NCBI GenBank assembly: GCA_905331295.1
Contig: CAJNYD010000459.1
Coordinates: 62,001-126,000 of the forward strand
Source of the DNA: Rotaria socialis
Lineage: Eukaryota
Direction of reading: 5' to 3'
DNA length: 64,000 nucleotides
Notes under the pieces: generated by a model
Seen by the model: only the letters and a program-made list of their open reading frames with translations
Told to the model about the DNA's origin: nothing
Database searches by the model: none
Program-made: the position numbers and the translations under genes
Shown: piece by piece, positions 22,811 to 60,485 of the stretch
How the letters are laid out: every line of letters starts with the position of its first letter
Numbering within the stretch: the stretch's first letter is position 1

Positions 22811-23366
22811 TATTCTAGACAAAACAAAAAATATATATATCTCAATGTATGTTTTTAATTCTAAGACTAATCCATTATATTATGAATCGATTTTGTGTTG
22901 ATGATGTTTATACTGGATGTCGAATGAAGCGCACCCACACCCACACCCAACTGCACGCACAAGCTGATCTGAGTCTGAGTCATGGCACTGTTAAACGAGT
23001 GTGGGTGTGGCTGGGTGTAAATGCTTTAACCAGGCCCAGGCACACATCCTCTTTTCAAATTTCTCCTATCCTCGATCTTGCTAGCTCGAAGATCAAACAA
23101 ATGCTTTTCACATCTATACTAGAGAAAGCATATACTGACTGAGTCAGTGTGAGAACACTACAATTAGAATAATTGTGGAACAACTGTTTACTTCTTCCTT
23201 TCATTCTTCTATTGACGCAAGCCATCTCACATACTCGGCATACCAACTTCAGTTTGTTTTATTTTGTAATTAAAATTTTCTCTCCTGATTAAGTAAATGG
23301 ATAAAATGAAAAAAAAGCAAACGAGCACGCAAAAAAATTAAAAGAACTCGAATTTAGTCTGTCCTA

Positions 23367-26300
23367 CTACATGAATTCACTTGCAATGATCGTGTTAACT
23401 TGTTGCATCACTTCGTTCAAGAGTGATGATGTATCACTTTTATTTAATTTGACTCGTTTAACAAGGTTCTCTTTCTTATCTCTTTTATAGATCGCTTCAA
23501 TGTTTTGTAGCATCGTTTGAACATATGTAGTGAAATCAGATAACAGTAGAAATATCCCACGATCTTTGATTTGATTAATAAGATTTTCCATCAGTGGCAC
23601 ATCTGGTAAACCACCAAGATAGCTATCCCAACCTGATCCTTGGTCATGACAAAACGGTGTGTGACCAGGCGCATCACCAACCCAAACTAGTATCTGTGCT
23701 GCTCGTGAACTACCATCTTTTGTCCAGCTTAATTTCAAAGCTTTCTCTAGCCCACCTTGAACATCTTCACACATATCGTCACCACCGTCCGCTTCTTGAC
23801 TAGCAATTTTAGCTTCAACTGGTGCAATATTAGGCGCTTGATGAAAATCAATTAAATCGAAACGATTTGAATCAGTATAGTCACGATAGGCAACAAATGC
23901 CATTCGTAGAACACTATTTTTGTCAAATTTTTCTTGCATATCCTTCTGTATTCCATCGCCGATCGCCTTAATATATTTTTTACAAGCTTCAATCCAACTT
24001 CCCATGGAGCCGGTACAATCCAGTACAAAACATATTTCAACGGTTAGTGGTGTATTATGCGCATTGCTGGAAAATGTTAAATCGATAGTACGTTTCGTAC
24101 TTTGTGTGACAGCATCAAAGTGTGTTTTCATTTCTTCGTTCCATACTTGGTCTGTCGATGAATAGGCCTTATTATCATCTCCAATGAACGTCGATGTTTT
24201 ATCTACATGATAAAGTGGATCATTCGGTGTTCGTCCATCGCTTAGTTCATTTGACCAATTAATCAATGCATCACAAACTAGACGTGGATTTTGTGCAACA
24301 ATCCAATCATTGAATGACAAGCAAACACCATTCGATTCAAGTCCAAGTCCAATTCCGATGACAGTAATCGAACGCTGCTCTGCATGAGCAATGATACGCT
24401 GCATGAAACTGCCACGTTTATCATAACCATCAGTCAATACGAAAATAAACATCGGACCATGATTATTGTTGTGTGCTGATTGTTGTTGTAGTAATTCTGA
24501 AGCTGCAAAGATAGCGTCACTTAACAATGTTGTTTCACCATCGATTTTCAATGCATTCAATAAATGGTGTAAAAATAAACGATCATAGCTTTGCTTGTAA
24601 CTCTTCACTAGCTCTATACACTTTCCGAACGTTAAAACACTAAAATCTTCGATACCTGTTTTGTTTAATGCCGCACAAATGGAAAGTAATATGTCGACAG
24701 ATGAAAAGTACGTTGGTCCAGTCATTGATACTGATTGATCGAGAAGAATGGCAATACGATATTCTGGTTTTTGTGAACCAATTTGATTTAAATAGATTCG
24801 ATTGTATTGTCCTTGTGTACAAATAAATTTAACAATACCTGGTATAAATAATCGATTGCCTTTCGTATCTGGTAGAGCTTGTGTAGGCTTATAAGCTGGA
24901 AGAACATTGTCTTCCATGGTTCGTACTAGTTCACCAATATATGTTTCTAGGTGTTGTTCAATTTGTTGTAAGCGTTTATCTGTATCACTAAGAATTGTAT
25001 CATGTAGTTCCAAATTCGAATAACTTTTCTCTAGTGCATCCATTGTTTTATCTAAATTTTCTATGAATTCATTGGAAGCACTTGAGAAATCAATATTCAT
25101 TTGTTGTTGGAATGCTTGCTGTTCAAGTTTTTGTCTGGAATCGCTGACATAGAATTGACCGGCAAGAGCAATATCTGGATGTGTCCATAAATCAACATTT
25201 CTTGCATCCGATAAAGTGAAGGCACTTAATTGTTGAAATTTAATTGCATTCGCTGTCGATGTTTTAGTTTCAGGTGTAGCTGAATTGTTTGTATGTACTA
25301 AAATTGATTGTTCGATGATAGTGATAAGATCACCGACAACTGTTTTTGTTAAAGTATCAAGTTGCCCAATTTCAATTAACTGATTTCGTTCAGGAGCGAC
25401 ACGTTGTATGAATTCTTTTGCTTTTTTCTCATGTTCAACAGCGAAATTCCTATAATCATCGGAGAATCTGCTATCGCCGGACTTCGGTAATTCAGGTATA
25501 ATGCAAACCATATAAAGATCAGCATGTGCCTTTTGTAATTGTGTTGTGAATAAGTCAACTTCTGTTTGAGCTGAGATACCATCAGTAATCATGATAATAA
25601 AACGTTTGACATTCGGTTTTATTGTATTACCGAAAAGTTCTTTATTTTCAGCGATTTGCTTTAAAGCTGTTGCAGGCAATGTTTTCTCATCGGTCGTAAA
25701 GGACTCGAGAATGTATTGTCCTCGTGCCACTTGTTTTTGTTGAAGACTAAGTGATTCACTGGTGGCGGTAGTAGTAGTAGTAGTGATTGGACTCGTTCCT
25801 GATTTAACAGTGTCATGCATTGATTCATGCCCTAGAGATTTAAGGATTTTTTGTTCGGCGCCAAATCGAAGAACGGCAAATTTCCATTCCAGACGACGAA
25901 ATGTCTCCATAAGAATGACTAATGTAGTCAGTGCTTCTCGGATTTTTTTCCCACTCATGCTTCCACTATTATCAACGCAAAATACAAACTCAAATTGTAG
26001 ATCGTCCTGTTCTGTTTGTTGTTTACTATACTGTTTTGTTAATGCTGAACGTAAACGCGTCAATAGCATACCTTGAATATTTCGTGTAAGTCGGGCTAAT
26101 AGAGCATATCGAGGCTTATCTAATTTAGTATTGGGTAAATCCTCAGGATCACAACTTTCACTAATCTTTCCGATATCGCACTTGTTGACCGATTGTAAAA
26201 GATTTGCGTACATGTTGTTTGAGCGTTCTTTCAATTTATCTAGGTCATTTTTACTGATTTTTACCGTTTTACTTTCATCTTTCGATTTTGAATCGGTTGT

Positions 26301-29300
26301 TCCTGTATTTGAACCAATATTATTTCCAATTTGAACACGAACGACCCCAGCTTCTTTGATGTCTACTTTCGGTGAAACGTTTTCTGCGTCAGAATTTTCC
26401 ACTCTCCCATCATCATCTATTACTAGAGAGACATCACGATTCGCGGCTGTTGAGCCTTCTTTTGCTAATGCTTGCTCATCAGTGTCAGATTTCTCAGGAT
26501 CTTCGCTACCATCATCCAATGCAGAATTCAACTCGCTCTCATGATTCGATAGAATATTATTCAATTGAATGCCTAGCTTGTGTAATATTGGATTGCCGAT
26601 TATTTCACCTTGCTCAAATTTTGAATCTTCAAATCCTTGTAAAAGTTGTTTCACGTTCTCAAGATTTGTTCTTTGCTGCTGACCTTGCATATGATCAGGC
26701 AGATCAGAAATATTTCCATCTTCAGGTATGTCGTAGTCATCAGCCAAATCGCTCTTCTTATTTAATTTACACATTTTTCGCAACGAATCTGAGCCACTAA
26801 GTTTATCTAAAACTTGAATTAAGTCCTTCCTTATTTCTTGACATTTCTGTTTTATATGACCATTAATATCGCCTGAACATTTATCAATCTCCTCCAATGA
26901 TTGATACAATTGTAGGGATATTTCGATAACTTGGCATAACGTTGTTTGGGCTAAGCTATCAATTTCTTTTTTCATATTATTCGCTACCATCTGTTGTAAA
27001 GTGTTCATAGCTGCTTGAATTTTATTGCTGATCGCAGTTGCTGTTGCTAAACATGTTATTGTTTCTGTCAATACTAATTCATCTTCCTTAGCTATACTGG
27101 ATACTTGCTGCTCTGACTTTTTACTCAACTCGGCAGCTTCCGTTGCCAGCTTCTTTATTTCAGCTACTGCTTCTTCTTTAACTTCCTCACTTGGTTCACT
27201 CATTAAGAGAGGACTCGTTGGTTCACCAGAGTGATAATCAGTGAATTTTGTGTCGCCTGGTATTTTTCCACGCCTGTTCGCTAATGGATTCTCGCTGGTG
27301 GTGCGATCAGAAATAGTCTTCTTTGTTGTTGAACCTTCACTAGGTCTGCCTGATGATGCAGCTGCCATTGACGACAGCACTTCACTACCATCGCTTGTAC
27401 TGCTTACGTGGCTATCTGCTTCTTTAGTAGCACCACTTGGCGTCCCACTGCCTGTACTACCACTACTGCTAACACTTGCTTTGTCACTGAGTCCAGTACC
27501 ATTACTGGCACCGCTGGGGTGGCTCTTAGCTTCATCACTGGAACCAATCGGTTTAGCCCTATATTCACTACCGATATCTGTACTACTACTTGCACTGCCG
27601 GTTCCACCAGTACGTGCACTGCCAGTTCCACCAGTACTTACACTACCAGTTCCACCAGTACTACCAGTTCCACCAGTACTTGCACTACCAGTTCCACCAG
27701 TACTTGCACTGCCAGTTCCACCAGTACTTGAACTGTCAGATCCACCGCCATCGCCACTGCCACCGCCGAACAATCCACTGAATGCACCGCAGAGGGAGAG
27801 AGCTAAGCCTATGGCGGCTAGCACGAGACCTACTGGATTGGTAGCCATCAGAAGTGTAACTATGCCACCTATGATTGCAGAAGCATGTTTAACTGACTCT
27901 GGTATACCAGGTATAATTTCTGTGAGTATGGACATTGCAGCTGTTGCAATGGAACCTATTTGAGCTACTTTTGCAGATATTGTAGTTGCTTTAGATAGGG
28001 CCGAAACGCATTCAGTTATTTTTTGAACATTTCTGTATACAGTTCTGCCTTTCTCTAGTGCATTAACTACATCTTTATCTACACCAGCTGCAGTGAGTAG
28101 ATCGGTAGCTAGCTGAAGATAGTTATCACCCGAAAGAGGCTTTCCAGACGTTAACGCTTTCACCAATGGTTTGCTTGCGGCCAGTATTTGTTGCCCTTTA
28201 CCACCGATCATGGAACCAGCAGCATCTATCATATCTTCGTAGCTAATCGATTGCTTGTTGAGCCTTTTCTGCAGTAATGGCATAACTGATTGAACGAACG
28301 GACGAACCTCGTCTGGAAGAATAGTACTGATGGCATTCAACGAATGATCAAGTATTTTTTGTGGATTTTTCGATTGAATAGCATCCATTATATCCACAAC
28401 AGCATGAACTTGTTCTGCATATTCTGGGGGTAAAAATGATGCTCCCATATTCAATGCACACTTGGCTATATCTTCAGTTGCCATAGCTTTGTGCTTGACA
28501 ATTGTTTGTAGCTCTTGAGCCATAGTATAAACACTCTTTAATTCTGGTGGTAAATATGACTTTAAATTGTCGTCATTCATTAGACTATTGAACAATTGTA
28601 GCGGATCATTTGTTTTCGAGAGAACTTTAGCAGCTGACTTTGCTATAGCCATAGCTATATCGATTTTGTTTGCATGCTCTGGAAAATATTCATTTGTTAT
28701 CGAATGAACTACTGCTTGAAGATCATTATTTTGTATCTGATTCACGACATTTTGTGCAACAATCAATGATTTCGCCGTTTTCTCATCGACGATACCTATG
28801 GCTGCATCAAAAGCACAACCTAGTAGATTCTCTTTCGTTATTGGTTGTTTCATCAGTTGAGTTAACGATGACATGACCTTTTGAGCTTGTTCTGGCACAT
28901 GTGGAATAAGCGTGAGAGCATCTTTGATTGCGTCAATTTCCTGATGATTTGTCAATTTTTCATAGATATTGCCAGCAGTTCGCAACATGACAGATGTTTT
29001 CTTGGGTGCAAGAACTGAAGCTAAGTCAAACGTTGTGTGGATTATATGTTTTAATTCGCACGTTTCTAACCGACTGAACTGTTCCATGTTTTCAAAAACT
29101 GTTTGAACTTCTTTATTGGGCATTAGTTGTGATAAATATTTCAATGATTGTAGTTTGTCTGTTGACAATAAATTCAATGCATTCAACGATACTTGTAGGA
29201 CATTTCCTGTTTCCGCTCCGTATAATTCAGTTATGGTATTGACGACTTTATTTTGTACTGCATCTGAAGAAGTCAATTGTTTTACACCTTCGTTAAATCC

Positions 29301-32300
29301 CAATCGAAGATTTTCTGGAAGTAAAACTGAAATTGATTTCAGTGCTTGAATTGGTTCTTCTATTCCTCTATCGAGTATTCTTCCTAGACTGATCTCTGAC
29401 GAGTCTATAGAGATGATTCCGTGTGCTAATTCAAGAATTTTTTGTTTCACATCACCAACAATTATTTCTGGAGTAGATCCTAAGATAGCTTTAGCTTGAT
29501 TAGAAATTTGTTCATCAGGTATGAGATGAAGAACTTCATCAATGACGATCATCGTCGGATTCTTGTTGTTACTCAAACTGTCCAATGCATTTGAAATTGG
29601 TTTGAGAAATTGTTTCATATGCTCATCAGGAATACACTCAATCGTTTGATCGATAAAATTCGAAATATTTGCTTGTGTAAATTCTCCATTCATAGCTGGC
29701 ATCAAATTTTTATAGGATTCCAATAATGTGTTAAGATGTTCGATTGGTTTCAATCCAATATCGCTATCGTTCAGTTGACTTGCTAGTTTAATACCCTGTT
29801 CCAATACTTCTAATTGTGTCATAGTCGTTGATGTCACATGCGAAATGACTCTTATTAATTCATCGTTAACTTTTTGTTCTTTATCGATTGGATTCATTAA
29901 ATCGCAAATATCAGAAATGGTTTGCATTAAAGGAATTATTCTCTTGTTCTGAATACTATCTACTATGCTTACTAAATGATTATTGAGTTTTCTATGATCT
30001 GGTAATTTCAATTCGTCGATAAAAGATTCTTTGGCTGTTTTAACAAAACTCGTAATCGAATCTGGTGTTATTGGTCCTGATTGGAATCCTGCAAAATGCT
30101 TCTGTAATATTTCCATCCAAGCGATTTGTTTTGATTTCAATTGACGGCAGTTACATGTTAATGATAGAACTGATTCCAAAAGATTGAATGAATCTTTGGG
30201 TTCCATTAGTTTTTTCAAATCACAAGATAATAATCGGCAACGATCATTTCCAAAATTTAACATCGAAGAAACAATATTCGTAGAAATTTGATTATCACAA
30301 GCCGATGTCTGGTCCGATAGTAGCGTAATTGTGAGCACTGTTCGCAGCGAGTCAATAGTCGTTTGATCAATATGAGCTTGCAATATTGTACATATATCGT
30401 CAATAAACATTTTCCAGTCTCGACCTGCTTTGTCTGCTCGTCTAATTCCATCTGTCAAATTCGAAATGATACTTTGTAAACCTTGAAGAGTGTTCTTCTC
30501 GGTTGAACTCAAACCGGGTGATAGCGAAGCAAGAATACCCGGGAAGGCGGATACATCGTTTAATGATGGCTCAAACTCTTCATTCGAAATCCGTTCGCTT
30601 AATTTCATGAATTCGACGATATTTTTTGATTCATTTTTATCGTCTAATTGTTCTTGAACGTAATCGAAAACAGTAGAAACAGATAGCGTATTGTCCGATG
30701 TAGCTATCGCCTGTGTAACAAGTTGACATTCAGTCAGCGGTATATTCGACTCAAACATTTTTTGTAAAATGACTTGTTCATTGATCGATTCACCATTCGA
30801 TGATAATTCTAATAGTCGATCGAGAAATTTCAGTGGATCGCGGTTCGTTTCAGTTGTCATTTCTGAGATAAGCGTACTTAATGCCTTTTCTGGATTTTTC
30901 GTTTTCTCCACTGTTTCAACTGTACTAACAACTTTTTCCATCAAATTCCTCAATTGCTGCTTATCACTGTTCGATAGTTTTTGAGCTTCCTCTTGATTCA
31001 TCACTAAATCACTTGCATAATCAAGTAAGCGTTTGTTTGCCAAGTGTTCTTTACTAGGATCCTTATGATTATTCTTTTCATATTCAATCAAACGTGCCAA
31101 TATTTGTTCGTGTTCAGTTTTTCCATGTTGTTCGAAAAGAATCGATAGTTTTTCAGCGCAATTAACTGCTAACGATAGATTTTCGGTTTGTGTCATTCCT
31201 TCTACGCCTATAATAGCCTGTGGCAAATGCCCATTCAAAATTGCGTCCATTTTTTCATACATAAGTCTCCACTCTACTGTTGTTAGTTTGCCAAATGTAT
31301 ATTGGATCTTTTCGTGGATATTATTTGTATATGTTGCTACTTGGTGACTATCAGACTCAATAGCCGACACTATCAGATCACATGTCAAATCTTCAGGGGT
31401 ATCTGAACGTTTTGGATCTGAATGTACTAACCCATCGATTAGAATTATGACTGGAGCAATCGCTGTAGCTGCACGTTGACGATATAGATTTGTGGTGTCT
31501 TCGAGTAATTGCATCAATCGTTTTTCGATTTCGGATTGAGATAAATGTTTCAATGGCGATGGGAGATCAATTGGCTTTATCTTATCTGTCGATTTATCTT
31601 TAGGTTCAATGCGTCCGGTAATGATTAATTTATATTTTTTGATTGTTTTTTCTGAAGATCGAGCAACTAAACGTTGATCGATTTTGAAATTACCGATTGG
31701 TGCAGTTTTTTTTATTTCAACGTTACATGCAATTTTTTTCGGATGAAGGGGAGATATTATGAAGTTTTTTTCATTATTCGCAAATTTGAAACTGAATATA
31801 GAATTCTCTTCTGTTTCGTATTCTAACTTTGCAGATACATTTCCATCGTTTTTAACCGTAATTGAAAACGGTAGAACTTTTGATTCTGGTGCTCGTGTGC
31901 CACAATGAAGAATATTTTGATCGAATGAAATGATTGCAGCCATTCGTTTACAATGGAATGGAATACGATGTATTGGCTCTTTACAATTAGTTTTCAGAAC
32001 AAATTCACAATCGAACGAGGCTGATTTCTTTTGAACTGTATATATATAATGGCATTCAATGGTTTGTTGAGGTAAGATGATAAATGGAAGTAGGACATGA
32101 TTATTGATGGTAACGTGTGTCGATGTTGTATGTATATCATCAATTAGCATTTTTACTGGACCTTTGTTTTGCAGAATGAGTTGACCTGCGGTTTCGTTAG
32201 CTTCTTCAGAAACTTGAAGTTTCGTCAGAGAACCAAAGTGAAATTTATCAAATTCAGGCCAGCCAGATGTTGTCTTGAGTATTAATTTAAATGACGGACG

Positions 32301-35300
32301 TTGACTTGCATTTGGAAAAAGAAAATCAATTAGATTGTCAATAATTCGGTGTGCATCTTTGATTTGTAACTCAATTTTCAATATTAACGATGCACCTGGT
32401 TCGATGAGAACTTGTCCGTGAGATAGTCTAGTAACAACAAGTTTAGAAGAATTTTCGGGCTTTGATTCCACGACCATTTTTACTTCGCCCGTATTGCGTA
32501 CTGTAAGTTCTTCGTATAGAGTGGTACCAGGAATACATGATTCTAAGTCAATAGAAAATTTTCTTTCTGTTAAAGGTATTGATCTATAAATGAGATCAAA
32601 GGAAATTCTTCGCGATTTTCCTAAACAAATAATTCGAACTTTGAAGTCTTTACTAAAATAAATTTCATAGACGCATTTAGCATCTTGAACTATATCTTGT
32701 ATGCACCAATCAATATTCAATATTTTGGATTCGTAGGCAAGTAAAATAAATGTTGAATATTTACTATCGATCTCAAATTTCCCAATAGCACCACCTTCTC
32801 GACGTATTTTAACCCGGAGATCGAGTGCTGTTGGGTTTTGAAGAGTAAACGCACGTTTTTCATATTTACCAGAACAGGTAAGTGCTAGACCAAAATCAAT
32901 TAAGTACGTTTTTAATTGATTCAATGATTGATCATCAACTGCTACTTCAAATAATGGTAGATCGATGTCAATTGAAAATGATTTTATTTCGCAACATAGA
33001 ATAACAGAAATGATCAATCGATCATTTCCTAGCTTCAATTGCCAACGTTCTTGATATTTGCCTTCAATACATTGACTATTTGGTGTGATTTTGATAGTAC
33101 TTGAATCATGTGGATCAACAACAGATGATGAGGAACGAATAACGAATGCTGATTGAGTATGCTTATCTGAATTCGATGACATCTCAAAATTAATTTCATC
33201 ATCACTATTATTTACAATTTGAATCGATTTTGTATGTAATTGTGCATAGGACCAATTCTGAATGATTTGTCCTAGTTGTATAACTATTGATGAATGAGAT
33301 CCGAAATAATCACCGTTCTGTTTGTTGATCGTTATTTTACTAGTAGATGGTGAGCCAGTTGATTTCATCAATGTTGTAACATTGACCTTTTTACTTATCT
33401 CATTTATATTATTTAGACGTGGTGGCTGTGTAATAGAACGCATTTGTTTTTTTCGTTCATGAATTAGTACTAATGTTTCATCGATAATCACTTGAAACGT
33501 AGTTAATTGTTTTTCATTCATCAATGTTTGTTGTTGTTTTCGAATTAAATGATTCTTTATTGTGTCAAGTAAAGAAATCGCTTTTTCACAATGTTCTTTT
33601 GTTTCGAGTGGATGAACAATCAATTGAATTAGATTTAATTCAATGCAAATTAGAATATGATAGATTTCTAAACCAAAATTAAGTTCACGTTGAGCCAGTG
33701 CACTTCCATCACGAAGTAATAGACGCATTCGAATTGTATTGATTTTGTTTATACTTTCTTTTGATACAATTTCGTCGTTCTTACTCAACTCTACGAGAAC
33801 ACCGCTTCGCTGAAAAGTTTCCAATGATTTATCGAGAGCCTGTCGAAATTCTATATTCGATTGTAGGTCTTTTTCTATGGCAAGCGATGCGTCATGTAAT
33901 TTCGATAGGGTGGTTGCTAATTTTTCGAAATGAAATGTTTCTTTGAATATTTGTAATTCTCGTTTTAAAGTATCAGCTGAATCAAATCCCAGAAAAATGC
34001 CATGTTGTATTCGATTAAGCTCATTTTCATCAACCATTGCATTTAATGTATTTACTGTGCGTACTATTGTTCTTTCTAAATATTCGTATTTCAATGTCAG
34101 TTGAGTCATAAGCAAATGGTGCGTTGGCGGAGATGAAATCTTTAATAATTGCATATCTTTTTCCAGTGCAATGGTAGGCATTGTGGCTATACTTTCTTGT
34201 TTAGGTATACTGTAATAGCTTGGCGATCTTGGCATTTCACAATCGGATACCTTTGTTTTTTCAATGTTTTTGCACAGACGATTGAGGTCCTCTATCCAAT
34301 TTTTAAGCTGCTTCTTTCTGTCTTTAGCATTTAATTCCCGATATTTTTCAAGTAAGTCAAAATATGCATGATCCACTAAAGTATCGGCTAACGTAATAGA
34401 TTCATCCGTTGTTATTGGATCTGCCGTTGATTCATCTAATGTCGAAGTAATAGACTCATCTTTTTTTACCGTACCCTCTTGAATTACGATATCACAGAGT
34501 TGTATCGACGTATTAGGAGTAATACGTATCTTAATCGTATTATCCTTGTATTTCCCGAACTTATAGTATACATCGATATCTTCTAATGAGCAAATATCAA
34601 CGTCTTGGAGCTGAATAATACCCATTTCTGTCCAACTGCCTGTGTCTCCATTGCCAGCCAGAATTTTTAAGTACCAAGTCTTTTTACAATGTATTGGGTC
34701 CAATATTATGTCTGTAAATATATCTTCTACATAATTTGAAATTACCAAAGATTTTAATGGTTTTATTGCGCTTTCGGATATGAGCGTGTCGGGCTCCTTT
34801 GTAAAGAGTTGAATTTTATTATCCCACATATTGCGCCGTGGTTGCTTATGTTCGGGTTTCTCATATAAATATTCGACACATTTGATTTCGATCCGCACAG
34901 AATCGATATTTATCATGTTCATTAACTCTTTTCCTTCCTTTTCTCGATCCAGTTGGCAAGGCACTGGAACTTTTTGCTGAGCTTTCATTAGCAGCCGGAC
35001 AAGTTTTACACAATCATTTGTTAAAATATCCTCGTCTATTATATCGAAATGGTTCGATTTAAATTTTGCTGTTTGCAAAAGTTTACCAATAAGTTTAATA
35101 TCATGCAATATTTTTATTGAATCTGATTTGGTTTTTTCAATTGTTTTACATACTCGATCACGATTTAAATCATATTCCTGCTTTAAGCGTTCGTTTTTTT
35201 GTCTAATGTGTTGAGTTTTACTATCAAATTCATCATTCATACGTTGTACCCATCGTTCTCGAATTCGTTTTCTCTGTTGAAGCAATGCATCGATTTCTTT

Positions 35301-38300
35301 ATTCCAATCGTCTATTGTCGATTGAACCTGCGTCAGACTTGGCCGCAAAGTGAGACGATCCATATTATTCAAATCGATTTTCAATTGATTTAAATTCATC
35401 ATTGACATTCGCATTAATTCATAACGAAGTAATTTTGTTAATCGAACGAGATAAACTATGACGGGTTCATCATTGATTAATTCCTTTTGAGGATATTTAC
35501 GTTCTAATTCACCAATTGTTTGCTGTAGAAATACGATGATTCGTTGTCCTTCTTCATTTAATAATTTGAAAGCAAATGAATATCGTAATCGTTTTGCAGT
35601 CGATTGTTGGTTGCTTGTCGTTGCTGATGTAAACGTACGAAGAAAGCGAGATGCTTGTGACCAGCCTTGAATGAGAAATTGTGTCAATTGATTGTACCAA
35701 TCAAATTCTTCATCGAGTTTTTCATCATAATGAAAGTAACGCATTAAATTTGCTTTTGATACAGTTTCTAGTAGATAAATATTATCGCGCTTTAAACGAC
35801 TTTTGATCGTTGTACTATATTTTTTCTGTAAGGAATCAATTTCTTTTTGTTGATGCTGTTGTACTAATTGAATGAAAAATAAAATAAATTGATCGACGAA
35901 ATTTTCTATTACTGATCGTATGTGACTTAATGATTCAATTAGTTTCTTGCGTTCATTGTGTAAAATATTAATTGACATTAAACCTTGATCTAATAATAAA
36001 TCTAATTGATCTTTAAGAATATATTCTAAGAATTCTGAATACATTGTTTCAAATGACGAGGAACATGATAGATGAATAGATTTAACTAGATTCTCTAGAA
36101 ACGGAGCGATGGCTTTAACTGTTTCAAGTTCGAATTTATCGGCATTATTTTCGAGAATTTTCATTAATAAATATTGTGTATTACTGACGAGTACATTCAA
36201 ATTATAACTGACTTGAATAAGAGGATTTGTTTTCGATACTGATTCATTCCAATCGCCAATTTGTGAAAGTACTTTCATTTTTCGTTCGATATCATCCATG
36301 AGTGCAGCTGGATCATAGCAAATATTACCAAATGCATGTGTATATTGAAGTTTGAGACTATACTCTAACAAGGGAAAGTCGTGGCATAGACGTTGATGAA
36401 CTTCTCTTAAGGAATATTCGTCGACAGGCAAACTTGTACCGGGTATATCTAAACGTTCTCGAAAACCACTAAGAATAACCAGTCGTTTCATATTATTATC
36501 CCATTCGAATGATTGTTTATCGAATTTAATGGGCATGGTTTTCAATTGCGTAAATACTAATGGATTTGATTGCTGAATTTTGAATAATTGGACAAGAAAA
36601 ATGGCCATGCGCGCATAGAAACTGGAACAATGGTACAATAATATCGACAGTACTTTAGATCGATAACTAACTCTTGTCTCATTAGAAGACTTTTCAATAT
36701 GAAAAGCAATTCGACTGAGTTCTTCTACTGTTTGATGAACGGTGTTCATGTCCATGGTAATCAATGATACTTGAGGAGCTTTAATTATAGGCTGAACAAT
36801 ATCGAGAGTTTCATTCAGATATGCACGTGTTTCATGGATTGTTTTCTCGATTTCGTTTACGAATGAATTCCGTTGATGAATCATGTCATTGAGCCAATTT
36901 TCAAATGAATTCAGTAGTTGAGTATGTGCTAATTTGTATGCTAATAGGAAACGCGTGAATATTTGATAGAGATTATCATCTGGCATTAACCATTTGAGTG
37001 CTTCATGATATTCATCATAGGACTTTGCCAACTCATTTCTCAGTTTTTCAATGAATTCAGTAACACGAGATTTCAATTGATTAAATTCGGTTAAATTCAT
37101 CTTTAACAGGCTTGCTTTTGCGCTAAATAAAGTTGCATAGAATTCACTAGATGTTGTTAATTTTTGTTGCTGTTGTTGATTACTATTGGCTTCTGATTTT
37201 GGTTTGTCGAGTTTTTCGATGAGTTGTGACGGTAAATAATTGCCCTTCACTTGTAATTGACGATTGACTTCTAAAAGTCGTCGTATTCGTTCAACGGCAA
37301 CTCCATTTAAAATTTTTTGATAGTCTTTTTCGAGTGTAATGTATTCATCATTGATTTTACTGTTTTCTCGTTCTAATTCTCGACGCTTGTAATCAAGCAG
37401 CGTGGGAGACATGAGTTCTTTTTCAATTGTAGCTTTTCGAGCTTTACATTGTTGAAAATCTCGTCCAGTTGCTTGAACAATGGAACTAGAGAATTTCAAA
37501 TAATTAGTTGCTGTACAAGAATCGGACACACCCAGTTGCTTCGTGAATTGAGACAAATTGTCTTGCATTTCATCGAATAGTTTACTCAATAACGATTGTA
37601 TTTCGAGAGCAAAAAATGAATGATATTCGTTACTTTCGGTCAACTGATAAAACCAATGATTTTTTAGATCCTCGATTTCAACTGATTCATTCATTTTATT
37701 AATTAAACTTCTCATGAATTCGACAAGCTTGTTTGTTGCTTGTGAACTATCGAATGACAATAGAGATAGAGATTCATCTTTACCATTCCTTAAAGTAAAT
37801 CGTTCTACGTGTAAATCTTTGATAGTTGTTCGAAACTCGGGAGATGCCAAATATTTTTTCAATTTTTCAATATCCTTGAAAGTGAAGTCATCCAATTGTA
37901 GTGTTTCCATGAATAGTACAGGTAATTCAGGAAATAGAAGAGCAATTATATCGGACAGCCGAAGATAAGATAGCTGCATTCCAGCTGATTGATTATAATT
38001 TGCTTGATCGTGTAAGATCCGCATAAGAGCTTCACGTCGTTCGTAGAGTCGAACAAGAAGTGGATATATGTGAATTAATTCATACGTTTGAATATCTTGA
38101 TCAGCCGATGTTATTAGTAGAAGTTTCGATTTATCGCAAGGATTTAAACGTTTTAATTGATTCGATCGTTGTTGAATGATATTTTCCAATGTTTTCGTTT
38201 GAAGTTCTTTTAAACGCAATTCCGGCAAATTAAAACGATCCTCTTCACCTTTTGCATGTTCTTGACAGAATTGTAAAAGTTCTCTACATGTCTCAGCCAA

Positions 38301-41300
38301 CGAAGTGGAATCGAGAAAGATAAATATGGCCATGAGTGATTTCAAATTATCAATAATAGATTGAACAGTTAAATGACCCGCATTCGATGAACACAGATCG
38401 TAGATTAGCTTTTCGACATTGGTCCACATTGATTCATATGTTTGTTGTTGAAAATAATCGGTTAAAAATTCTAAAGCTTCATCTTTCCCGGAAAATTTTT
38501 CCTCCATTAAGGATTGAACTAAAGTAACGAGACGATTTCGTTCGTTATCTGAAAAATCATAAGTAGTGTCACTCGCATATCTGATCGTCTTCTCAAGCAT
38601 ATCAGGTGTAACATCGATTGATTTTTCATGTTTAAATCGTTTTATATTAAAGATATCAGATTTTTTACGTTCGATAGATTCAGCTGTGATTTGTCGTTGC
38701 AATTGTTTTGGTGATTTTCGCCAATGCAAAAGCCCGAGTTCATTCAAAATTGTCTTGTTACGTTTTATTTCATGCAATTCCATTAGTAACATCACAATAG
38801 CATATTGTATTCGTGATAGGCCATTTTGTTTGGCTAATTGTCGTAACTGTTCTAATTCTTTTTCCACTTTTGTTAATTCTTCATTTTGACGATCTAACAT
38901 TGTTTCTTCAGCATTTCTTTTAATTATGGTAGTTGGTGGTTGAAATGAAGATGATTCTGTTGGTCGAACAACTTCAGGGATGTTAGTGTTTTGAATGATA
39001 TTATCTAGTTCAGCTTTTGTAATCAATTTAAAATCATCGATTTCATTCGTTGTTAATTGTTCAACTGTTTTAAATTGCGAATAAGCAACATGTTTCAGTA
39101 TATCGTCATTGTACAATTTCATAGTTTCATAGTATGTTTCAACAGATATTTTTATACCATATGTATCGACACTATCCATCGTATATTTCATGATGTTGAT
39201 CAGAAGCTTTGAAATCTGATGCGATTTCTTATAGAAATCGATTTCATTTGTATTTGTTCGATAGCGTAAAATTATTTGTAATAGTTTCGCTTGAATCATA
39301 TGTAGACGATCGATTAGGGTTGATATGAATACATGAAATCTAGTATGTGGATCGACTAAGAATCGTTTCAATTGATTCAAAACAGGATATTGAAATTGTT
39401 TTCTTTCGACTATGTTCAATGTTCGTGCTTTCGCTATTGGTTCTTTTGGTATGCACATTTCTAATGTATCCTCTAGTTTTCTCTCTAACTTTGTTATGAC
39501 TTGTCGACCTAAATCTTGACGTGTTTCGTTAACTAACTTGGCCAGTTGTGAAATATTGATAGGCGCCGATGGTAATGTTTGATTTGCAATCGTCTTTACT
39601 TGATCAACAATTTTCAATAGAAATTCAATGTCTGCGTGAATTTCATTTTCAACAAGATTTTGATAAGTATGTTGTTCATTTCGAATGGTACCTAGTTGTA
39701 CTTGTTTTTGAATCCAATTTTGAACATCGAGATCGAGTTGTTGTAAATAGGTAGGTTCGATCATCGAGTTGAAATCATCATTTATATCAGAATTATGAAA
39801 AATATGTTGTAATGCATATGGTAAGATAAAGTATGCTAAATCATTATCAATGTTCACCGTAATGAATTTTCGTTCTATATCGATATCAGTATCAGTGGAT
39901 CTTTGTTTTATTTCATTCGTAAATCGATCAATTAACTGAACAAAATTTTTGTCGACTGTATTTGAATCCATTTGATGTTCAATCGCAAAATAGCGAAATG
40001 AAATCTTTTGACTGAAATAAGCTATACCAGATTCATTTGTTAAGTACCTATTGTACGAACGTTTATCGATCAGTATAAAATTCGTCAAACGAACGTTGAC
40101 AATAATATCGATTGCATTAGTTGTTTCCAAACAATTATTAATTGTTAAATGTGCATTATCATCTCTGAATACAAACAGAAGAATATTCTGTTCGAACAGT
40201 TCAGGATAGATAAGTTGCATCAGAGTAAGACTTGCACGCCCATGTGCTGTATTAATCTCATCAAAATTGACTTTCTTAAAAACATGCTGCCGAAGAACGT
40301 CAGATTTTAACTGTTTTCGTTCTTCGTCGAGTATATTCGATGATGAATATGTTTGACTTGATTCGTATTCTTTCAAATAGATTTTCGATATGGTGCAGAG
40401 TAACTCATTTATAATATTTTCTTGTCGTCTACAGCCATAGTCATGAATAATTTGAAGCCATCCATTAGCTTCGAACTTTTTCAATTCTTGTCTTAATGGT
40501 AAGAATAAAGTTCTGATATTCTCATTCAGTTGTTCGATATTTTTTAGTGCTGTATCGTGTCTGGCTTTTGTATCATTCAATGTATTTTCTTCTTGTTGAA
40601 CTGTATCTAGTTCTACGTCAATATTTGATGTTTTATCTGATACTGATTCTAGAAGACTATCAATTTTCAGATGAATTTCTGTAATTCTTCTCTTGACGTC
40701 TTCAATATTCTTGACTAGCATGTGCTCTTGAGAGCGGTATCGACTTTGAATATCATCGAGCTGAACTTTACACGATGCTACTTCTTCGTAGATAACATTA
40801 AGTATCGTATGAATGAAATACAAAGAATTCAAGCTGGCAAGTAAATTCGATGAACTCAATAACGTTTGTTGTTCGTCCATTTTCTCTATAAAATCCGATT
40901 TAATCATAAGATTCATCGAAAATTTGCATGCAACATTTAATTCTAATTTCGATGCGGCTAATAAAATAAATTGATCTTCTTTCATTATTGAAAGATACTG
41001 GCATAACTTTAATATGATATCCAATCGTTGATCAGCTGAAGATACTATTGGAATTGATTGTACTTTTTGTAGATGTACGTTGATTAGCTTCAATGCTGCA
41101 TGAAAATCGTTATCGTCATCGTCAACATTCGTTTGGTTTTGTTGCCGAATGAATTCTTGCGTTTGCAAAAGAATGTGTAGATCTTTCTTCGCCATTTGTT
41201 GACATGGAAACGAAACCCATTTCATATATGTTTCCGTGATGAGAAGTTTATCGAGATCATTCTGAATCATAACGCTCCAATGAGCTATAATTGATGATCG

Positions 41301-44300
41301 CGATAGCTTACAGATGATTTGCAATTTTTTCGATAATGAGGAGAGTTTTTGAATTGTGTTGTTCAATCGTTGCAATTCTGAAAGACGATACGGTGCATCG
41401 ATGAATGACGTTTGCTCGACAAAATTAATAATTTGCTTATAACATTCTTGAACAGTGATATCTAATAGATGTAACGAATCTTCAGTATTATCAAGTGAAA
41501 GTAAAATTCTTGTGGACAATAAATATTGATGAATTTTAAGAAGCAATTTTTTCAAATCAGCACCTAGTACCATTGATTGAAGTGCATCATTGAGTAGAAC
41601 TCGTGATCGAATAGTTGAAACTTGCGAAAAGAGATCATCTGAGATGGTTTCCTCTTTGGATTTTAGTAATGGTTGAAGATAATCCAATAAAAACAGACCA
41701 TAATCGATAAAGTCTTCTTTGAGGCACGCTTCTTCGTTAATGTACTGATTGATAACTCTCAAGTGAAGATCTAATGTGCATTCTTCGATTGATGCAATTA
41801 AATCGTGTAGATTCTCTGCTGATCTATACCAGGCCATTTGTTGATGTCGATTTTCTATTCCAACCACGGATGAAAGCATTGGTAGAGTCGTGTAAGTTGT
41901 TTTATTCAGTTCGGCATTCGACAAATGTTGAATGAAGCTTTTGATTAAAGATATTTTTCCACTAGGATTTAAAATCGGATCGAGATAACTTCGAAAGATC
42001 GATGGTTTTAATGCAAATACCGGATCGCGTTCATTCATTGCGTATGTTCGTAGGATACGTGCTGACCGTTTTATATTTTGATAAGATAATTGATACGATG
42101 TAATAAATTGTAAATCTTTAGTGTTCGATAGCTCTTTTGCTGACGCATGCAAACGTAGCAATGTATGCGTGAGTTCTTGGCCCCCATTGATTCCTTGAAG
42201 TTCACCTTTGACAATTTCCGCTAGATCATGTTGATCGACATTGTGAACTGTTAATTCATCATCTAACGGTTGCATCCGTATAATTAAACATCGATTTCTC
42301 CAAGCACTGGATAGTTTATTTGCCATTTTTCGATTATTATTTGCAATGACAAACAATCGAAAATCATTATGAATACCGTTTCCACGACTGTACTGTTGAG
42401 ATGTTGCTGATTCGTATAAAGTTAATGTTGGTTCAGCTTCAGCTAACGAATTCAAACGTTCGATAACATCTCCACGAGCACAATTAACATTATCTAATAG
42501 AATCCAATCACCACGTTCCATAGCTTGTATTAAAGGTCCTTTGTTAAAAGTAAATGTCAGCCCTTCGCCAAGGTTTTGCACCAATTTATAGTCGTCTTCA
42601 ACTTGTTCAAGTATATCGAGATATTTTTCTATTTCTTGTGAAATCAGTTCGACATATGTTTCGTGCGAATGCTGTAACGCATTTTCCAATAATATTCGAC
42701 ATTGTTTGTAGGCATCAAGAGCAAGATCATTCTTTTCTATAAGAATCAATAAGAAAAAGAAAATTTTTAATTCTAGAAATTATAGCAATATGAACATTTA
42801 CTATTGTTAAATGTGAGGTTTTCATGAGAGCAATCATTTTGTCAGATCTCTATACAAATTAGCTATAGATGGAGCGACACTGTTTTTGCTTATTTAGATT
42901 CAGAAATTAGCACTTCACACACATATATGAAGTCATCTTGGTAATGATCGTATGAGAAAACGAGTATAATTAAATGGTACTTTCAGAATAGGAAATATCT
43001 GAATTGATCTGGGAGGGGTAATCGAGCAGCTATGCCCAAATATTTTCAATTTTGACGCCGCACCAGTTGGATGCGCATTGACATGAACAGAGTGGAGATA
43101 GTTCATCAGAAAATGTGTCCTTTTATATTTCTATCTTACGTGTACATTTCCTATCAATGTCATAATGTTGAACTACATCTGAACTCAATGGGTACGAATG
43201 GTTGTGATTGTTATAGATGGAACTTCTATGATTTATCTCATGTCTACAATAGGATTCATCCAACACTCACATTCAAATCCATATGATATGGATGTGCAGT
43301 GTCGGTGTACTGACCACCCACTACGCCAACACTGTTCCCCAGGGAGTACTGACTACACCGGGAGAGTGTGCAGTAGAACACCGACCACACTGTCACCGGT
43401 GTCACTGAAACACTGAAGATAGGGACACTGACGGCACCGACACTGCACACCTCTATCCATATTGAGACTAGCGTATCTATGGTTCTAGCTGCATCAGTCT
43501 GACTTCTTTATCATGGTTCCCGATTCAATCAACTTCAATTATTAGTGTTTCTGTACATAGTAAACAGTTAATTATAACTAACCGTGTTCCCATTGAAAAA
43601 GCATACGTGCTATTGTACGAATCAATTGTTCGGATTCGTCAAATTTTTGTAACAATGGTATAAGTACAGCCAATGCAAAACGAATGATGTCATTGAGTAG
43701 TTGTTTACTATTCTGTTTGCGACGTTTATCATAAGAATGTTTATTGATCACAGTCCACGAGCCCAGCAAATCTGATGTTGTTGTTTCATGATTGAGATTC
43801 AATACCAATAAGCGTCGCCCACATATGCGAGCTAATTCACAAACAGTAGCTGTTTTGCCCGAACAATCACCTCCTTCAATCAAAACTGTCGCTTTACTCA
43901 CTGTAGCTGCTGCTAATAGTTGTAGTCTTTCCAATGTTCGTTTGCTATGAATGCATGGCCTGTACGTCGACGGATATTCTTTTTTCTCGATATAGACGAA
44001 GCCGAGTCGTGTATAACCTTGCAAATTTAAATCACTATCAATCAATTCTTGGCAACTCGCTGCTCCAGTGGGCGTATCCAAAGTAAAATGCTGTCGTATC
44101 ATTTCACGAACTAAAGTTTGATCGGCAACGTATTCGAACCGAGAGGCATAGACAATATCCAAGTAAACATGTAGACTACGAATTATGTTCTGTTCTTCGA
44201 TTTTACCAACACTTTCATCATCAGTTGTATTTGTTATTGGTGGTGTTATCGTTTCTGAAAGACTAATATGAGCTCGATGTGTTACTGAATGTGCTGCAAT

Positions 44301-47300
44301 TAAATTTGATAGTTTTTCAATATCTCGAAGATTAAAATCGTACGGTCCGCCAAGACGACCAATCTGTCGAAGTCGTGCCTTTTCGCTTATTTCAAAATGA
44401 AACATATTTATCTTCTCAACGAGTTTCTCAGTTAGATAGCCTGCATCAAGATGAGGACGCAACAATGAAATGGTGATGTGCATTAATTCATGAACTTCGA
44501 ATGATGCCAATTGAACTTGAATAAAATGTGTTTGAGTTGAACGAGGCAATTTCTCTCGGCCACCACCAATCGAAGCTGGATTCATAGCAGCAACAATAAT
44601 TGAACCATCGATTTGAATCGATTTTGCTAGTGCAGGTATAAACAATTCTTTTTCGTTGCCAAATAATGGTGACAATTGATTTAATAACTCTTTACGTGCT
44701 AAATTTAATTCATCGAATAAAATGACCGTATTTTGACGATCTTCATTCAGTGAAATGTACAACGGTCCTTCTTGAAATTCAAATGATCTTTGTCCACCAA
44801 CAACCCGCGGTACGAACGACCCGATAAGATCTTCAAATGTAGTATTACTACTAAAATTGATACGAACAACATTGTATCCTAACATTTTCGCTAGAACTTC
44901 AATGATTTTTGTTTTACCAACACCTGGCGGACCGGCTAATAATTGTCGATTGGATGAATGTAATGAAAACATGATTCGTGATATATTATTAAAGACAGAT
45001 TTTGTTAGAGCAAGAGGAAATTTAAGTTTGTCAGGTTTAGTTTTTACTTGTGGTGCAAATGGTGCTATCAAACCATTCGATAGAAGACGTAAACCCCAAT
45101 GTTTTCGTAGTTGTTTCGTCTCTTTATCAAATATCATCATATCTTCTACTGCACACCATTCATCAAGTCGTGTATAAACACCTGCTTCTTCGAGTTTTTT
45201 ATCAGTCGTAATACAATCATTGGTGCAATTAAATTCTTTCAGTACATTTTGCCAGACTACATCTGCTGTTTGTAAATTCGAGATAGACGATTTTTTGACT
45301 TCATTGACACCGTCAAGAAATAGAAATTTAACGCAAAGTGCAGCTGCTTGTTCGATAGGCATATGTTCAAGATGTAATTGCAAACATTCACCAAAACGAA
45401 CAAAATGACGGGAATCCAATGAATCGATTTTCATTGCTTGAGCCAATGTTGGAGCAAGTTTATTAGCTAGAATATCGACCATTTTATTCATTTCTAATTG
45501 AATATGTTCATTTTTGACATGATCTAATCGCGATTTTGTTGCTAACTGTTGTAATTCATTGTTGTCATAAGGTAGAACACGTATTTCTGTCATTCTTGAT
45601 CGTGTTGCTGCGCTCAATTGCAAACGATTTTCTGTTTTCTCATCTGTGTGTACAGTTGCAAATACTTGAAATGTCGATAGAATCGGAATTTTAGCACGTT
45701 GTGGATTAATACCGGTTTTTGCTGTTGTTTCTTGAGCAGTAAAGTCTTCGTAGAGAATAAATGATGGTTCAGTTTCAAATAGACTGTTGAGACGTTCAAT
45801 AACAGCCTGCGACGGTTCATTGATATCTTCTAAGATTAAAACTTTACCTTCTTTTACAGCGGTAGTAACTGGACCATCTTGAAATAGAAAGATGTTCGAT
45901 TTTCCTTGTTCGATGGCTCGTCGAATTTCTGCAATGATACTTTCACAACGAGCTTTTATTAGTAGAACACCATTCTCATTCGATGCAAGTTTACATATAT
46001 AATCGAGACGTTCGCAAATAGTTTCAAGTTTAAGACCAACAACTTCGAATGCTTGAGGAACTAGATTGGCACCTTGCTCATCTGAGAATGCGATTGAAGC
46101 AGAAGACGTTGTCATTTGTTGAAAATCATGCTGTGTAGCATCATGAAATGCCAGAAGATTTTGCTCTTCAGTGAGTTCGACTGGTTGTATCATTGCAAAT
46201 GGATCGATATCTTCTTGTCCTTGTGTTCCCAATGGCATGCTCGCAGTATTTTCATAATTAGTTGAGACATTACTATTTTGTATCATGCTGAAAGGATCGA
46301 TTTCTTCTTGTTGATTGTTGACCATTGCAAACGGATCGATCTCTTCTCGTTTATCGATAAACGCTGCAAATGGATCAATTTCTTCTTCTTCTTTATGCGT
46401 ATCGTTCGACATAATATCTATAAGTTGTCCAGAACTGCAAACAGCTTCAAAATCATCATCATCATCATCATTATAGATTATGGATGTGCTCTTTGACATG
46501 GCTGACGGTGATTGTGCTCGCGGAACTGAAACTGTCGATGGTATATATACATACTCTTTCATCTGATCTTCAGTATTTTCATTCAATTGTGTTTCGTTCT
46601 CGCCGTTCTCTAGATATTCGCTTGTATGTGCTATTTTTGTTCGATGTTTTCTCGGCGTTCGTTTTTGTTGTTCTTTTATTTTTCGTACAAATGTATCGAT
46701 ATCTTGAGCTAAGCTATTGATACTTCGTCGGAAATCATTAAAGTCATCGTGTTGACTTGAAGTAATTGTTTCCGAGAAACTCTTTTCTATACGTGTACAC
46801 AGTTGATTTAAACAGTTAAACAATAGATTTAATGCATCAGCATGTGTGTAGGGTCTTGAAAAACAAACAATTTTATGAATATGAAAAGAGAGCTGATCTC
46901 GATAGAACTCACCTGATCGAACCAATCAGATCATTTGTTTCTGTTGATGTTGAACATGTAATTGTGCAAATGTCAGATTCTTTTCCCATTAATTTCGACC
47001 ATAGTTTGATCAAATATGATTTATAACAAGTTGGACCAAGTAGAAGAACTGGTTCATGTTGATCTGTAGCTGCAAATATTCGCCAAAGTGAAAGAAGTAA
47101 ATTTTGTGGTGCCGAAGACAATTGCAGAGTTTTAACTGCATCGATATCGACAAAAGAATAGGATATAGGCAAACGAGGTGCACAATGAAGATCAATATGA
47201 TCAGGTTCAATTTTGATTTTAAACGAAGGATCGATGAGTTCTGGAAACGCTTCCTTGTGCTGGAGACATTTGATGAATTCAGAATAGAATTTTTTCGGTA

Positions 47301-53300: not shown

Positions 53301-53301
53301 T
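23367..53301 (-). CDS. Giant midasin/Rea1-like AAA+ ATPase with tandem Ig-like domains, hydrophobic hairpin and three vWA domains (~9,676 aa); exons 53301-46913, 46854-43583, 42736-23367
   Basis: Three long ORFs join via phase-compatible GT-AG introns (DLIGSIR|PYT; QWEH|EKNDL) to give 29,031 nt. Six Walker A/B pairs: GETGVGKS/LLLDE, GSEGCGKS/LILEN, GPAATGKT/FVADE, GPTCYKS/LILED, GPPGVGKT/ILFDE, GGDCSGKT/ILLDN, with midasin-type DLIGS, EGP/DGP and ERLNSL motifs. MIDAS motifs DNSGS, DQSVS and DCTGS. Confidence 0.9.
27592..27730 (-). repeat. Coding minisatellite, ~24-bp unit, encoding (STGGTGSA)n
   Basis: Six gttccaccagta cores in tandem on the + strand; one unit is shortened. Confidence 0.9.
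42737..43582 (-). other. Intron 2 of the giant AAA+ gene (846 bp, phase 1)
   Basis: Donor G|GTTAGT. A pyrimidine tract precedes acceptor TTATAG|AA. Splicing restores the frame inside AAA module 6. Confidence 0.75.
43287..43455. mobile_element. Short MITE inside intron 2
   Basis: TIR core TGTGCAGTGTCGGTG / CACCGACACTGCACA. TSD-like TCCATAT on both sides. Internal CACTG/CACCG repeats. Confidence 0.65.
46855..46912 (-). other. Intron 1 of the giant AAA+ gene (58 bp, phase 2)
   Basis: Donor AG|GTGAGT and acceptor TTTTTCAAG|A. Splicing yields the midasin-like DLIGSIRP motif. Confidence 0.9.
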
Positions 53302-53507
53302 GTGTACAATATCAAAGAATCATGTATTAAAATACGTATTGAATATTTATATCTACAAAAAAAACGATCGTTTTAGTAAAATTTTGAACATGACAACAGT
53401 CTAAATTTTGCAAAAAACCTGCGATGCACCATTGAAGCGCGTGAATAGAAAAAATTGTTCAATTTCACTTCTACCATATGCAAGTGTAGCGTCGAATGTG
53501 GATTCTT

Positions 53508-60334: not shown

Positions 60335-60485
60335 TGCTCAGCACGGTGAATGTATCTGAAATATATGTTTTTTTTTGTGTAAGACCGCACACAGGGGTGG
60401 ATCAATGAAGAAAGGATATATCCTGCAATTCTTGGTTTTTTCCTTCCTCTCACTTTCGATGAACAAACAGAAAATGAATATATAT

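Follow-up and report, generated by a model that had tools for sequence, protein, structure and literature searches.

Does a giant protein with three tandem domains of the von Willebrand factor A (vWA) type behind a midasin-type AAA+ ring represent a midasin remodelled within rotifers, or does it belong to something older and separate? The question is raised by a gene on the minus strand of a 64,000-nucleotide stretch of the bdelloid rotifer Rotaria socialis (contig CAJNYD010000459.1, positions 62,001 to 126,000; hereafter the window, whose numbering is used throughout), in which a sequence-only reading had recognized three metal ion-dependent adhesion site (MIDAS) domains and proposed that one was ancestral, one duplicated and one acquired. 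We conclude that the triple-vWA tail is the conserved end of a separate, old paralogue family and not a rotifer-level remodelling of midasin, which is usually regarded as the sole eukaryotic giant to unite AAA+ modules with a MIDAS. The family is apparently undescribed, a new form within the midasin/MoxR-vWA kind and not a midasin orthologue; we found no description of it in the open-access literature, and subscription papers may cover it.

Three vWA domains of distinct descent

The motif sets of vWA1, vWA2 and vWA3 lie where they had been placed, on the minus strand within a single stop-free frame from 42779 to 23367 (6470 codons; Table 1). When the domains were scanned separately, Pfam matched VWA to vWA1 (E 6.7e-12) and vWA2 (E 6.7e-10) and VWA_4 (PF25106) to vWA3, the last at E 1.8e-5 and 24.8 bits, under the curated 27-bit cut-off, and an AlphaFold2 model of the tail built from a 55-row alignment folds into three Rossmann-type domains (mean predicted local distance difference test score 85.4, predicted template modelling score 0.71). 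Pairwise blastp among the three domains of the window gave nothing significant (best E 0.06), and they are therefore not recent duplicates. A 75-domain tree gave each position its own clade across eukaryotes: vWA1 (15 rows), vWA2 (15 rows), the vWA4 of some relatives (8 rows) and the midasin MIDAS (12 rows) each occupy one side of a branch (97–99), and vWA3 (14 rows) joins 11 of 11 stand-alone domains (Shimodaira–Hasegawa-like approximate likelihood ratio test, SH-aLRT, 99). Nor does vWA3 belong to a separate transcript, for it shares the open reading frame (ORF) of vWA1 and vWA2 in the window and stands in one chain with them in Chlorarachnion P0033 and Salpingoeca P0105, relatives that by their names derive from transcripts. 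One contig from presumed RNA runs spans 23259–24059, within which vWA3 lies, and does not reach vWA2.

The first two domains are midasin-like. In a fold comparison of the predicted models that covered 997 aligned chains, vWA1 matched 6QT8 (Z 22.6, root-mean-square deviation 2.9 Å over 210 residues) and vWA2 matched 6QTB (Z 21.1, 2.5 Å over 210 residues), both structures of the Rea1 MIDAS, which is also the best match of each by profile. A single-sequence search of solved structures returned no matches where the profile search did, and a search of the ESM Atlas returned only generic vWA clusters below 0.9. The segment ahead of vWA2 had been likened to the pre-MIDAS segment of midasin, and a profile made from 92 of 103 canonical midasin C-termini scored it at 44.9 bits, as compared to 17.0 for vWA1 and no match for vWA3; a finger loop precedes vWA2, and vWA1 has the helices without the loop.

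vWA3 comes from elsewhere. Its likeness to the vWA type of alpha-kinases, as had been suggested from its motifs, is upheld by its grouping with the stand-alone VWA_4 domains, which share its YRD, DxxED and DAPxH motifs and are found fused to Hsp70 (three cases), a protein kinase, DUF2828 and an alpha-kinase (P0156). The vWA-alpha-kinase compared by sequence is P0156, and Dictyostelium VwkA (PMC2827801) enters by its description; unlike the vWA-alpha-kinases, the family chain has no kinase domain. By fold, the vWA3 model is integrin beta-I-like: it matches integrin beta8 (6OM2; Z 19.7, 3.1 Å over 195 residues) and many other beta I domains at Z 18–19.7, and at the metal site its DxxE and DxxxH loops can be aligned with theirs (the DxxE alignment to beta8, at E 0.1, is weak alone). 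The MIDAS glutamate is kept in 69 of 69 vWA3 domains. However, sequence identity to integrins is just 14–19%, and the beta I domain sits in the hybrid domain of an extracellular heterodimer, whereas vWA3 is the C-terminal domain of an AAA+ chain that has no propeller, hybrid domain or conserved membrane segment.

Distinct origins are thus borne out, vWA1 and vWA2 being midasin-MIDAS-like and vWA3 a member of a separate, mobile subfamily, while the finer history that had been proposed holds in part. The sister order of vWA1, vWA2 and the midasin MIDAS did not emerge, as no pairing was rejected (approximately unbiased test, p 0.75 and 0.77), and the direction implied by an acquired vWA3 did not either, since 3 of the 11 stand-alone domains nest, with weak support, among the family vWA3s. 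A bacterial vWA encoded beside a MoxR ATPase reached 62 bits with the profile of vWA2 and 10 bits with that of midasin; this one sequence fits vWA2 being the older form relative to the midasin MIDAS.

A predicted giant chain and its relatives

A predicted gene of three exons and two introns would join this tail to six midasin-type AAA+ modules in a protein of 9,676 residues, ordered as N-terminal region, AAA1 to AAA6, a helical linker of ~3,000 residues, five ASH-type immunoglobulin (Ig)-like repeats, helical repeats, a Gly/Ser/Thr stretch and vWA1 to vWA3. Two ORFs upstream of exon 3 match AAA_5 and the midasin lid in Pfam, homologues align across the first predicted join in 6 of 8 cases and across the second in 7 of 8, and the relative P0005 carries an 18-residue in-frame extra stretch at the second. 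The closest relatives are Rotaria and Adineta proteins, at 75–80% identity, and the N-terminal ~1,000 residues have no blastp match among stored proteins longer than 2,000 residues. A membrane anchor at a hydrophobic stretch near residue 8182 was considered and dropped as borderline and weaker in P0005. DNA run X2 carries a second, diverged copy of the tail over 23368–27027 (~80–85% identity in the listed pieces, at similar depth), which is either a paralogue or a second copy from bdelloid tetraploidy; such tetraploidy would make a second gene copy expected.

The 930-residue tail, searched against 1.84 billion representatives, returned 3,409 matches at E 0.001 and 92 at 1e-30. We scored 156 proteins, namely the best 150 of these matches, matches from an earlier search and the window protein, and 70 of them keep the vWA1-2-3 order: 39 have these three domains (several are cut inside vWA3) and 31 add vWA4. 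The remainder have vWA2-3 (28), vWA2-3-4 (17), vWA3 alone (16) or other fragments (25). An organism was assigned for 10 of 30 looked-up clusters, from nine lineages, and the named members come from Bryopsis, Mesostigma, Chlorarachnion, Rhodomonas, Amoebophrya, Salpingoeca, Corticium, Tritrichomonas, Adineta and Rotaria. The cassette is thus spread over a sponge, a choanoflagellate, a parabasalid, algae, a rhizarian, an alveolate and bdelloids, in five major eukaryote groups, with spacing as well as order alike in distant eukaryotes, and this eukaryote-wide spread suggests that the family is very old. Ring and cassette, with six family-type AAA modules, occur in a single chain in the window protein, P0008/P0165, P0289, P0291, P0294 and P0295, except that P0291 is without vWA1 and P0294 ends after vWA2.

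The cassette and family trees were quick, unrooted searches. In them, the window protein clusters with a sponge protein and two further ones (SH-aLRT 99), and a branch with SH-aLRT 100 sets apart all 27 four-vWA rows, together with six cut rows and Mesostigma; a second bdelloid type, with four vWAs, is placed among protist rows in the cassette tree. The fourth domain is nested in vWA3, after its last strand and before its last helix, and the C-terminus reads [DE]x[LMF] in 55 of 63 complete-length members. Because the metal-binding residues are near-invariant at all four positions (75–77 of 76–77 in vWA1, 100 of 100 in vWA2, 68–69 of 68–69 in vWA3 and 35–37 of 37 in vWA4), none of these domains is a dead spacer. 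Among close relatives the cassette is 65–90% identical and the linker 23–63%. Our own profile of the Ig repeats finds five in the window protein; across the 103 canonical midasins it finds no repeat.

Several further sequences touch on the family. In the Tritrichomonas member P0008/P0165, vWA2 and vWA3 are separated by an additional domain of ~350 residues. P0296 (3,778 residues) combines SecA-like DEAD and P-loop domains with a C-terminal vWA4-type domain, and vWA4 is therefore mobile too. A scan of prokaryotic genomes yielded 2 loci from 26 candidates and no outgroup for the ring: one is a single MoxR-vWA pair, and the other (L001:2483-21209) is a member of the family that is interrupted by GT..AG introns and lies in a 6.9-Mb record bearing the title of a bacterial metagenome-assembled genome chromosome; since its sequence is closest to the Bryopsis-side members, it is probably mislabelled eukaryotic DNA. 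In Rotaria magnacalcarata, a gene for 7,479 residues with ~25% identity to midasins over ~1,000 residues has been reported (PMC7943196); in the available part of that paper it appears only as an insertion site of a long terminal repeat element, with no function assigned and no analysis of its domains, and it probably belongs to the family.

A ring with its own pattern of live and dead modules

In the window ring, the Walker B DE pair is kept in AAA1, AAA3 and AAA5 and lost in AAA2 (EN), AAA4 (ED) and AAA6 (DN), and arginine fingers are present in AAA2, AAA4 and AAA6 and lost in AAA5. The family repeats this alternation, four near-duplicate rows and one unrelated match being left out of the counts. 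DE is found in AAA1 (21/21), AAA3 (23/24) and AAA5 (31/32) and in none of the even modules (AAA2 0/24, AAA4 0/28, AAA6 0/34), and the finger is kept in AAA2 (24/24), AAA4 (28/28) and AAA6 (33/34) and lost in AAA5 (0/31). The fingers of the even modules would thus serve the odd, live sites, and AAA5 would have lost the one that faces the dead AAA4. Canonical midasins have DE in AAA2 to AAA5 and never in AAA1 or AAA6 (0/103); in agreement, Rea1 is described as hydrolysing ATP at AAA2–5, with AAA5 supplying the finger for the AAA4 site (PMC6286127).

The rings differ also in their inserts. In Rea1, the Rix1-binding insert of AAA2 forms the plug of the ring (PMC6286127, PMC6920918). Extra residues in helix 2 of AAA2 number 84–124 in 12 of 12 midasins, as compared to ~6 in the window protein; among the family rings, 10 of 11 have no more than 19. 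AAA4 of the family rings has 261–370 extra residues. In the window protein the acidic AAA4 helix-2 insert of ~330 residues contains four [EI]DPF repeats (~46200–46370, minus strand). DPF motifs in other proteins bind clathrin adaptors.

An unrooted ring tree splits 18 family rows from 14 midasins (SH-aLRT 100), with no family row among the midasins; a per-module tree that joined family AAA1, AAA3 and AAA5 had low support and was not used. Judged by these sequences, the family splits from midasin as a sister family and is not orthologous to MDN1. Both are single chains in which an N-terminal region is followed by six AAA+ modules, with helix-2 inserts and an odd/even alternation, then by a long linker and, at the C-terminus, by a MIDAS vWA that has elements I and II, but family members reach about twice the length of midasin and carry three or four vWAs, whereas exactly one MIDAS domain was found in 97 of 103 canonical midasins, none being detected in 6.

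Further differences concern the tail. In Rea1, the MIDAS loop bears a PY-type nuclear localization signal (NLS) and enters the ring pore, and the element III hairpin binds Rsa4 and Ytm1 (PMC6624252). A PY in the finger loop is found in 80 of 92 midasins and 0 of 91 family members. The element III stretch, measurable in 82 midasin and 66 family rows of 92 each, has a median of 86 residues in midasin and 53 in family vWA2, ~33 shorter, and the peak share of Asp/Glu before the vWA has a median of 0.44 in midasin (n = 97, 0.335–0.545) as compared to 0.20 in the family (n = 41, maximum 0.28) and 0.21 in the window protein.

Proposed mechanism

We think it reasonably probable that the protein is a giant AAA+ of the midasin sister family that works as a client-gripping, ATP-driven remodeller, probably not of nuclear pre-60S particles. 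A working analogue is NorQ-NorD: there, the pore receives a vWA finger, the C-terminus makes contact with the ring, and the partner is twisted as ATP turns over (PMC13036017). Because the corresponding parts are present in the family, a metal-bridged grip and docking through vWA2 are likely by analogy. The window AAA modules match CobS and GvpN models and, by sequence, the coupling of helix-2-insert AAA+ modules to vWAs with an intact MIDAS would place the family in the MoxR class as defined in PMC7159879. Like the MoxR pairs (NorQ-NorD, CbbQ-CbbO, CobS-CobT), the family has a finger-bearing vWA without element III and a conserved free C-terminus. Those pairs, however, are homohexamers with a separate single-vWA partner, whereas the family has a single-chain ring with three dead modules and a fused multi-vWA tail, and its finger and conserved C-terminus lie on different vWAs.

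By analogy with Rea1 and NorQ-NorD, one could envision Mg2+ in the MIDAS sites being completed by acidic residues of a client and the ring pore taking up the finger that precedes vWA2; a second contact with the ring may come from the conserved free C-terminus, as in NorD. The stroke would be driven by hydrolysis at AAA1, AAA3 and AAA5, where the dead module that follows each site would supply the arginine finger, and ATP would pull or twist the client off a large complex. The vWA domains are likely not equivalent grippers, the ring-docking finger being found on vWA2 only; for the same reason, vWA1, vWA3 and vWA4 would not take turns in the pore and may instead add grip on a shared client or assembly, or regulate. 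The long arm with its Ig repeats could hold the body of the assembly, and the large AAA4 insert may stand in for the AAA2 plug as a regulator. From the loss of the PY-NLS alone we infer a possible cytoplasmic site.

Several points weigh against this remodeller reading or narrow it. The exon joins of the predicted 9,676-residue protein rest on splice signals and homologues, and contigs from runs that we guessed to be RNA give scattered cover with no joint at either predicted intron. The AAA1–3 motif counts lean on bdelloid paralogues (14 of 34 proteins); the alternating pattern holds in the 20 non-bdelloid proteins of the 34. One member, of the Tritrichomonas cluster, has a long branch, a 167-residue AAA2 insert and degenerate motifs, and the Ig repeats are detected in part of the long family members. 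The finger of the window protein reads TQA instead of the family consensus TRR, and its docking may therefore differ. Losing one NLS is no proof of a cytoplasmic site. The patchy presence of the family could also reflect gene transfer between lineages instead of great age.

As to what the remodeller would act on, the foremost specific suggestions are a defence role and a ciliary one, each on indirect evidence. A cell-autonomous defence ATPase resembling RNF213, whose vWA array would bind repetitive acidic microbial or viral surfaces for the ring to strip or disrupt, is a more specific version of the remodeller reading and a possible, if tentative, one. Bdelloids have several paralogues, one Bryopsis contig carries two family genes, the linker evolves fast, vWA number varies, the Tritrichomonas-cluster member has an extra inserted domain, and MoxR-vWA pairs function in prokaryotic conflict systems (PMC7159879); on the other hand, Pfam scans of the window protein and four long relatives found no effector or ubiquitin-ligase domain, and the cassette is well conserved and not diversifying. 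Somewhat more doubtful is a ciliary or centriolar remodeller whose ASH-type repeats bind microtubule-linked structures. The repeats match the Ig models of HYDIN, CFAP65 and Cep192, cilia or flagella occur at some stage in each of the nine named lineages, and none of the 10 named clusters is from a fungus or land plant, though fungi dominate the canonical midasin matches; yet those 10 are all that could be named of the 30 clusters looked up, no vertebrate, insect or Chlamydomonas member is among the named matches, and ASH-type folds occur in non-ciliary proteins too.

A divergent midasin that still serves the ribosome, with one vWA for each assembly factor, is the nearest version of the earlier proposal that several substrates are gripped, and we consider it quite unlikely. 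Its overall plan is that of midasin, vWA1 and vWA2 match the Rea1 MIDAS best, UniRef automatically names some bdelloid paralogues 'Midasin', and no canonical bdelloid midasin was seen among the 120 matches listed, which covered 3,739–5,000 residues only. Nevertheless, the PY-NLS, the element III hairpin and the Asp/Glu tether are all missing, and the Rix1-binding AAA2 insert is absent in 10 of 11 rings; that these four elements, all specific to ribosome work, have been lost speaks against a role on pre-60S particles, and a canonical midasin is present alongside family members within the same genus (Tritrichomonas) and the same phylum (sponges). A recent, lineage-specific fusion as the origin of the triple vWA, or an artefact of assembly or annotation, is hardly credible. 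Bdelloids are known for gene transfer, and two predicted introns are few for 29 kb of coding sequence, but the tail lies in one stop-free frame, all 30 bins of exon 3 are covered in a DNA run whose sample differs from the possible source, and the position-specific clades and matching order and spacing in distant eukaryotes led us to reject this origin for the cassette.

A bolder extension of the remodeller reading, which we regard as improbable, puts two midasin-type giants in the last common ancestor of eukaryotes, the second keeping an alternating live/dead ring and pairing it with an intracellular, integrin-logic tail as an ATP-driven, mechanically gated clamp, since lost by most model organisms. 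The beta-I-like vWA3 would then bind an acidic ligand from within the protein, either the conserved C-terminus or the nested vWA4, and switch the grip of the neighbouring vWAs.

The gene and its neighbours in the window

High-copy repeats (summed contig depth up to ~4,250 as compared to ~8) lie at 53218–54500, just upstream of the gene, and at ~43290–43440 inside intron 2, and an assembly gap (a run of N) at ~57270–57760 is upstream of the gene and outside it.

Table 1. Predicted parts of the giant gene and motif positions within the window
Feature	Position	Strand	Remarks
Predicted exon 1	46913..53301	-	~1,000-residue N-terminal region, AAA1-AAA3, first half of AAA4; start ATG inferred
Predicted intron 1	46855..46912	-	58 nt, GT..AG
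Predicted exon 2	43583..46854	-	Acidic AAA4 insert, remaining AAA4, AAA5, first half of AAA6
Predicted intron 2	42737..43582	-	846 nt, GT..AG; contains repeated element
Predicted exon 3	23367..42736	-	End of AAA6, helical linker, Ig repeats, Gly/Ser/Thr tether, three vWAs, stop codon
AAA+ ring, six midasin-type modules	42270..50301	-	Motif and profile matches
Five ASH/HYDIN-type Ig-like repeats in linker	31638..33311	-	Pfam PF22544 E 1.4e-6 and own profile
Gly/Ser/Thr-rich low-complexity stretch	27198..27785	-	At the place of the midasin Asp/Glu tether; by composition
vWA1 with N-terminal helices	25284..26117	-	Rea1-MIDAS-like, no finger loop, MIDAS residues intact
vWA1 motifs	DNSGS 25973; ITDG 25589	-	Motif positions
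Helices and finger loop before vWA2	24762..25085	-	Equivalent to Rea1 elements I and II; without PY motif
Motifs of segment ahead of vWA2	KPTQ 24890; GNRL 24860	-	Motif positions
vWA2 core	24249..24758	-	Rea1-MIDAS-like, without element III hairpin, MIDAS residues intact
vWA2 motifs	DQSVS 24740; LTDG 24437	-	Motif positions
vWA3	23370..24056	-	Integrin beta-I-like (model), VWA_4 subfamily; DxTGS, DxxED, DAPGH
vWA3 motifs	DCTGS 24020; YRDY 23888; GGDDMCEDV 23786; GDAPGH 23678	-	Motif positions
Last helix of vWA3, acidic-x-hydrophobic C-terminus	23370..23426	-	Four-vWA relatives insert vWA4 right before this helix

Other ORFs of the window include one of 734 codons at 789–2993 (plus strand), in which tetratricopeptide repeats follow an ADP-ribosyltransferase-like domain (PF03496, E 2.7e-7), a gene type expanded in bdelloids; a carboxylesterase (PF00135) at 5292–6845 (minus); and a rhodopsin-family G protein-coupled receptor at 15725–16696 (plus). 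At 13373–14182 (plus) lies a member of the GPR1/FUN34/YaaH acetate-transporter family, which is typical of fungi and prokaryotes, and this ORF is possibly a transferred gene. Another candidate for transfer, as a papain-like gene, is the 173-codon ORF at 59816–60337 (minus), which has no Pfam match; its look-alikes in the Atlas (0.96–0.98) fall in bacterial, viral and archaeal clusters, with a weak lead to Peptidase_C39.

Implications

In rotifers, sponges and algae, two families are lumped together under automatic 'midasin' calls. If the remodeller reading is true, a second widespread family of up to ~1 MDa, which databases misname 'midasin', would add a motor to the toolkit of early eukaryotes. 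Its ring of three live and three dead modules would offer a natural test of how labour is divided in single-chain AAA+ rings (midasin, dynein, RNF213) and of which pattern is the older, and finding a beta-I-like domain next to further vWAs, within an intracellular chain, is relevant to the origin of the integrin I domain.

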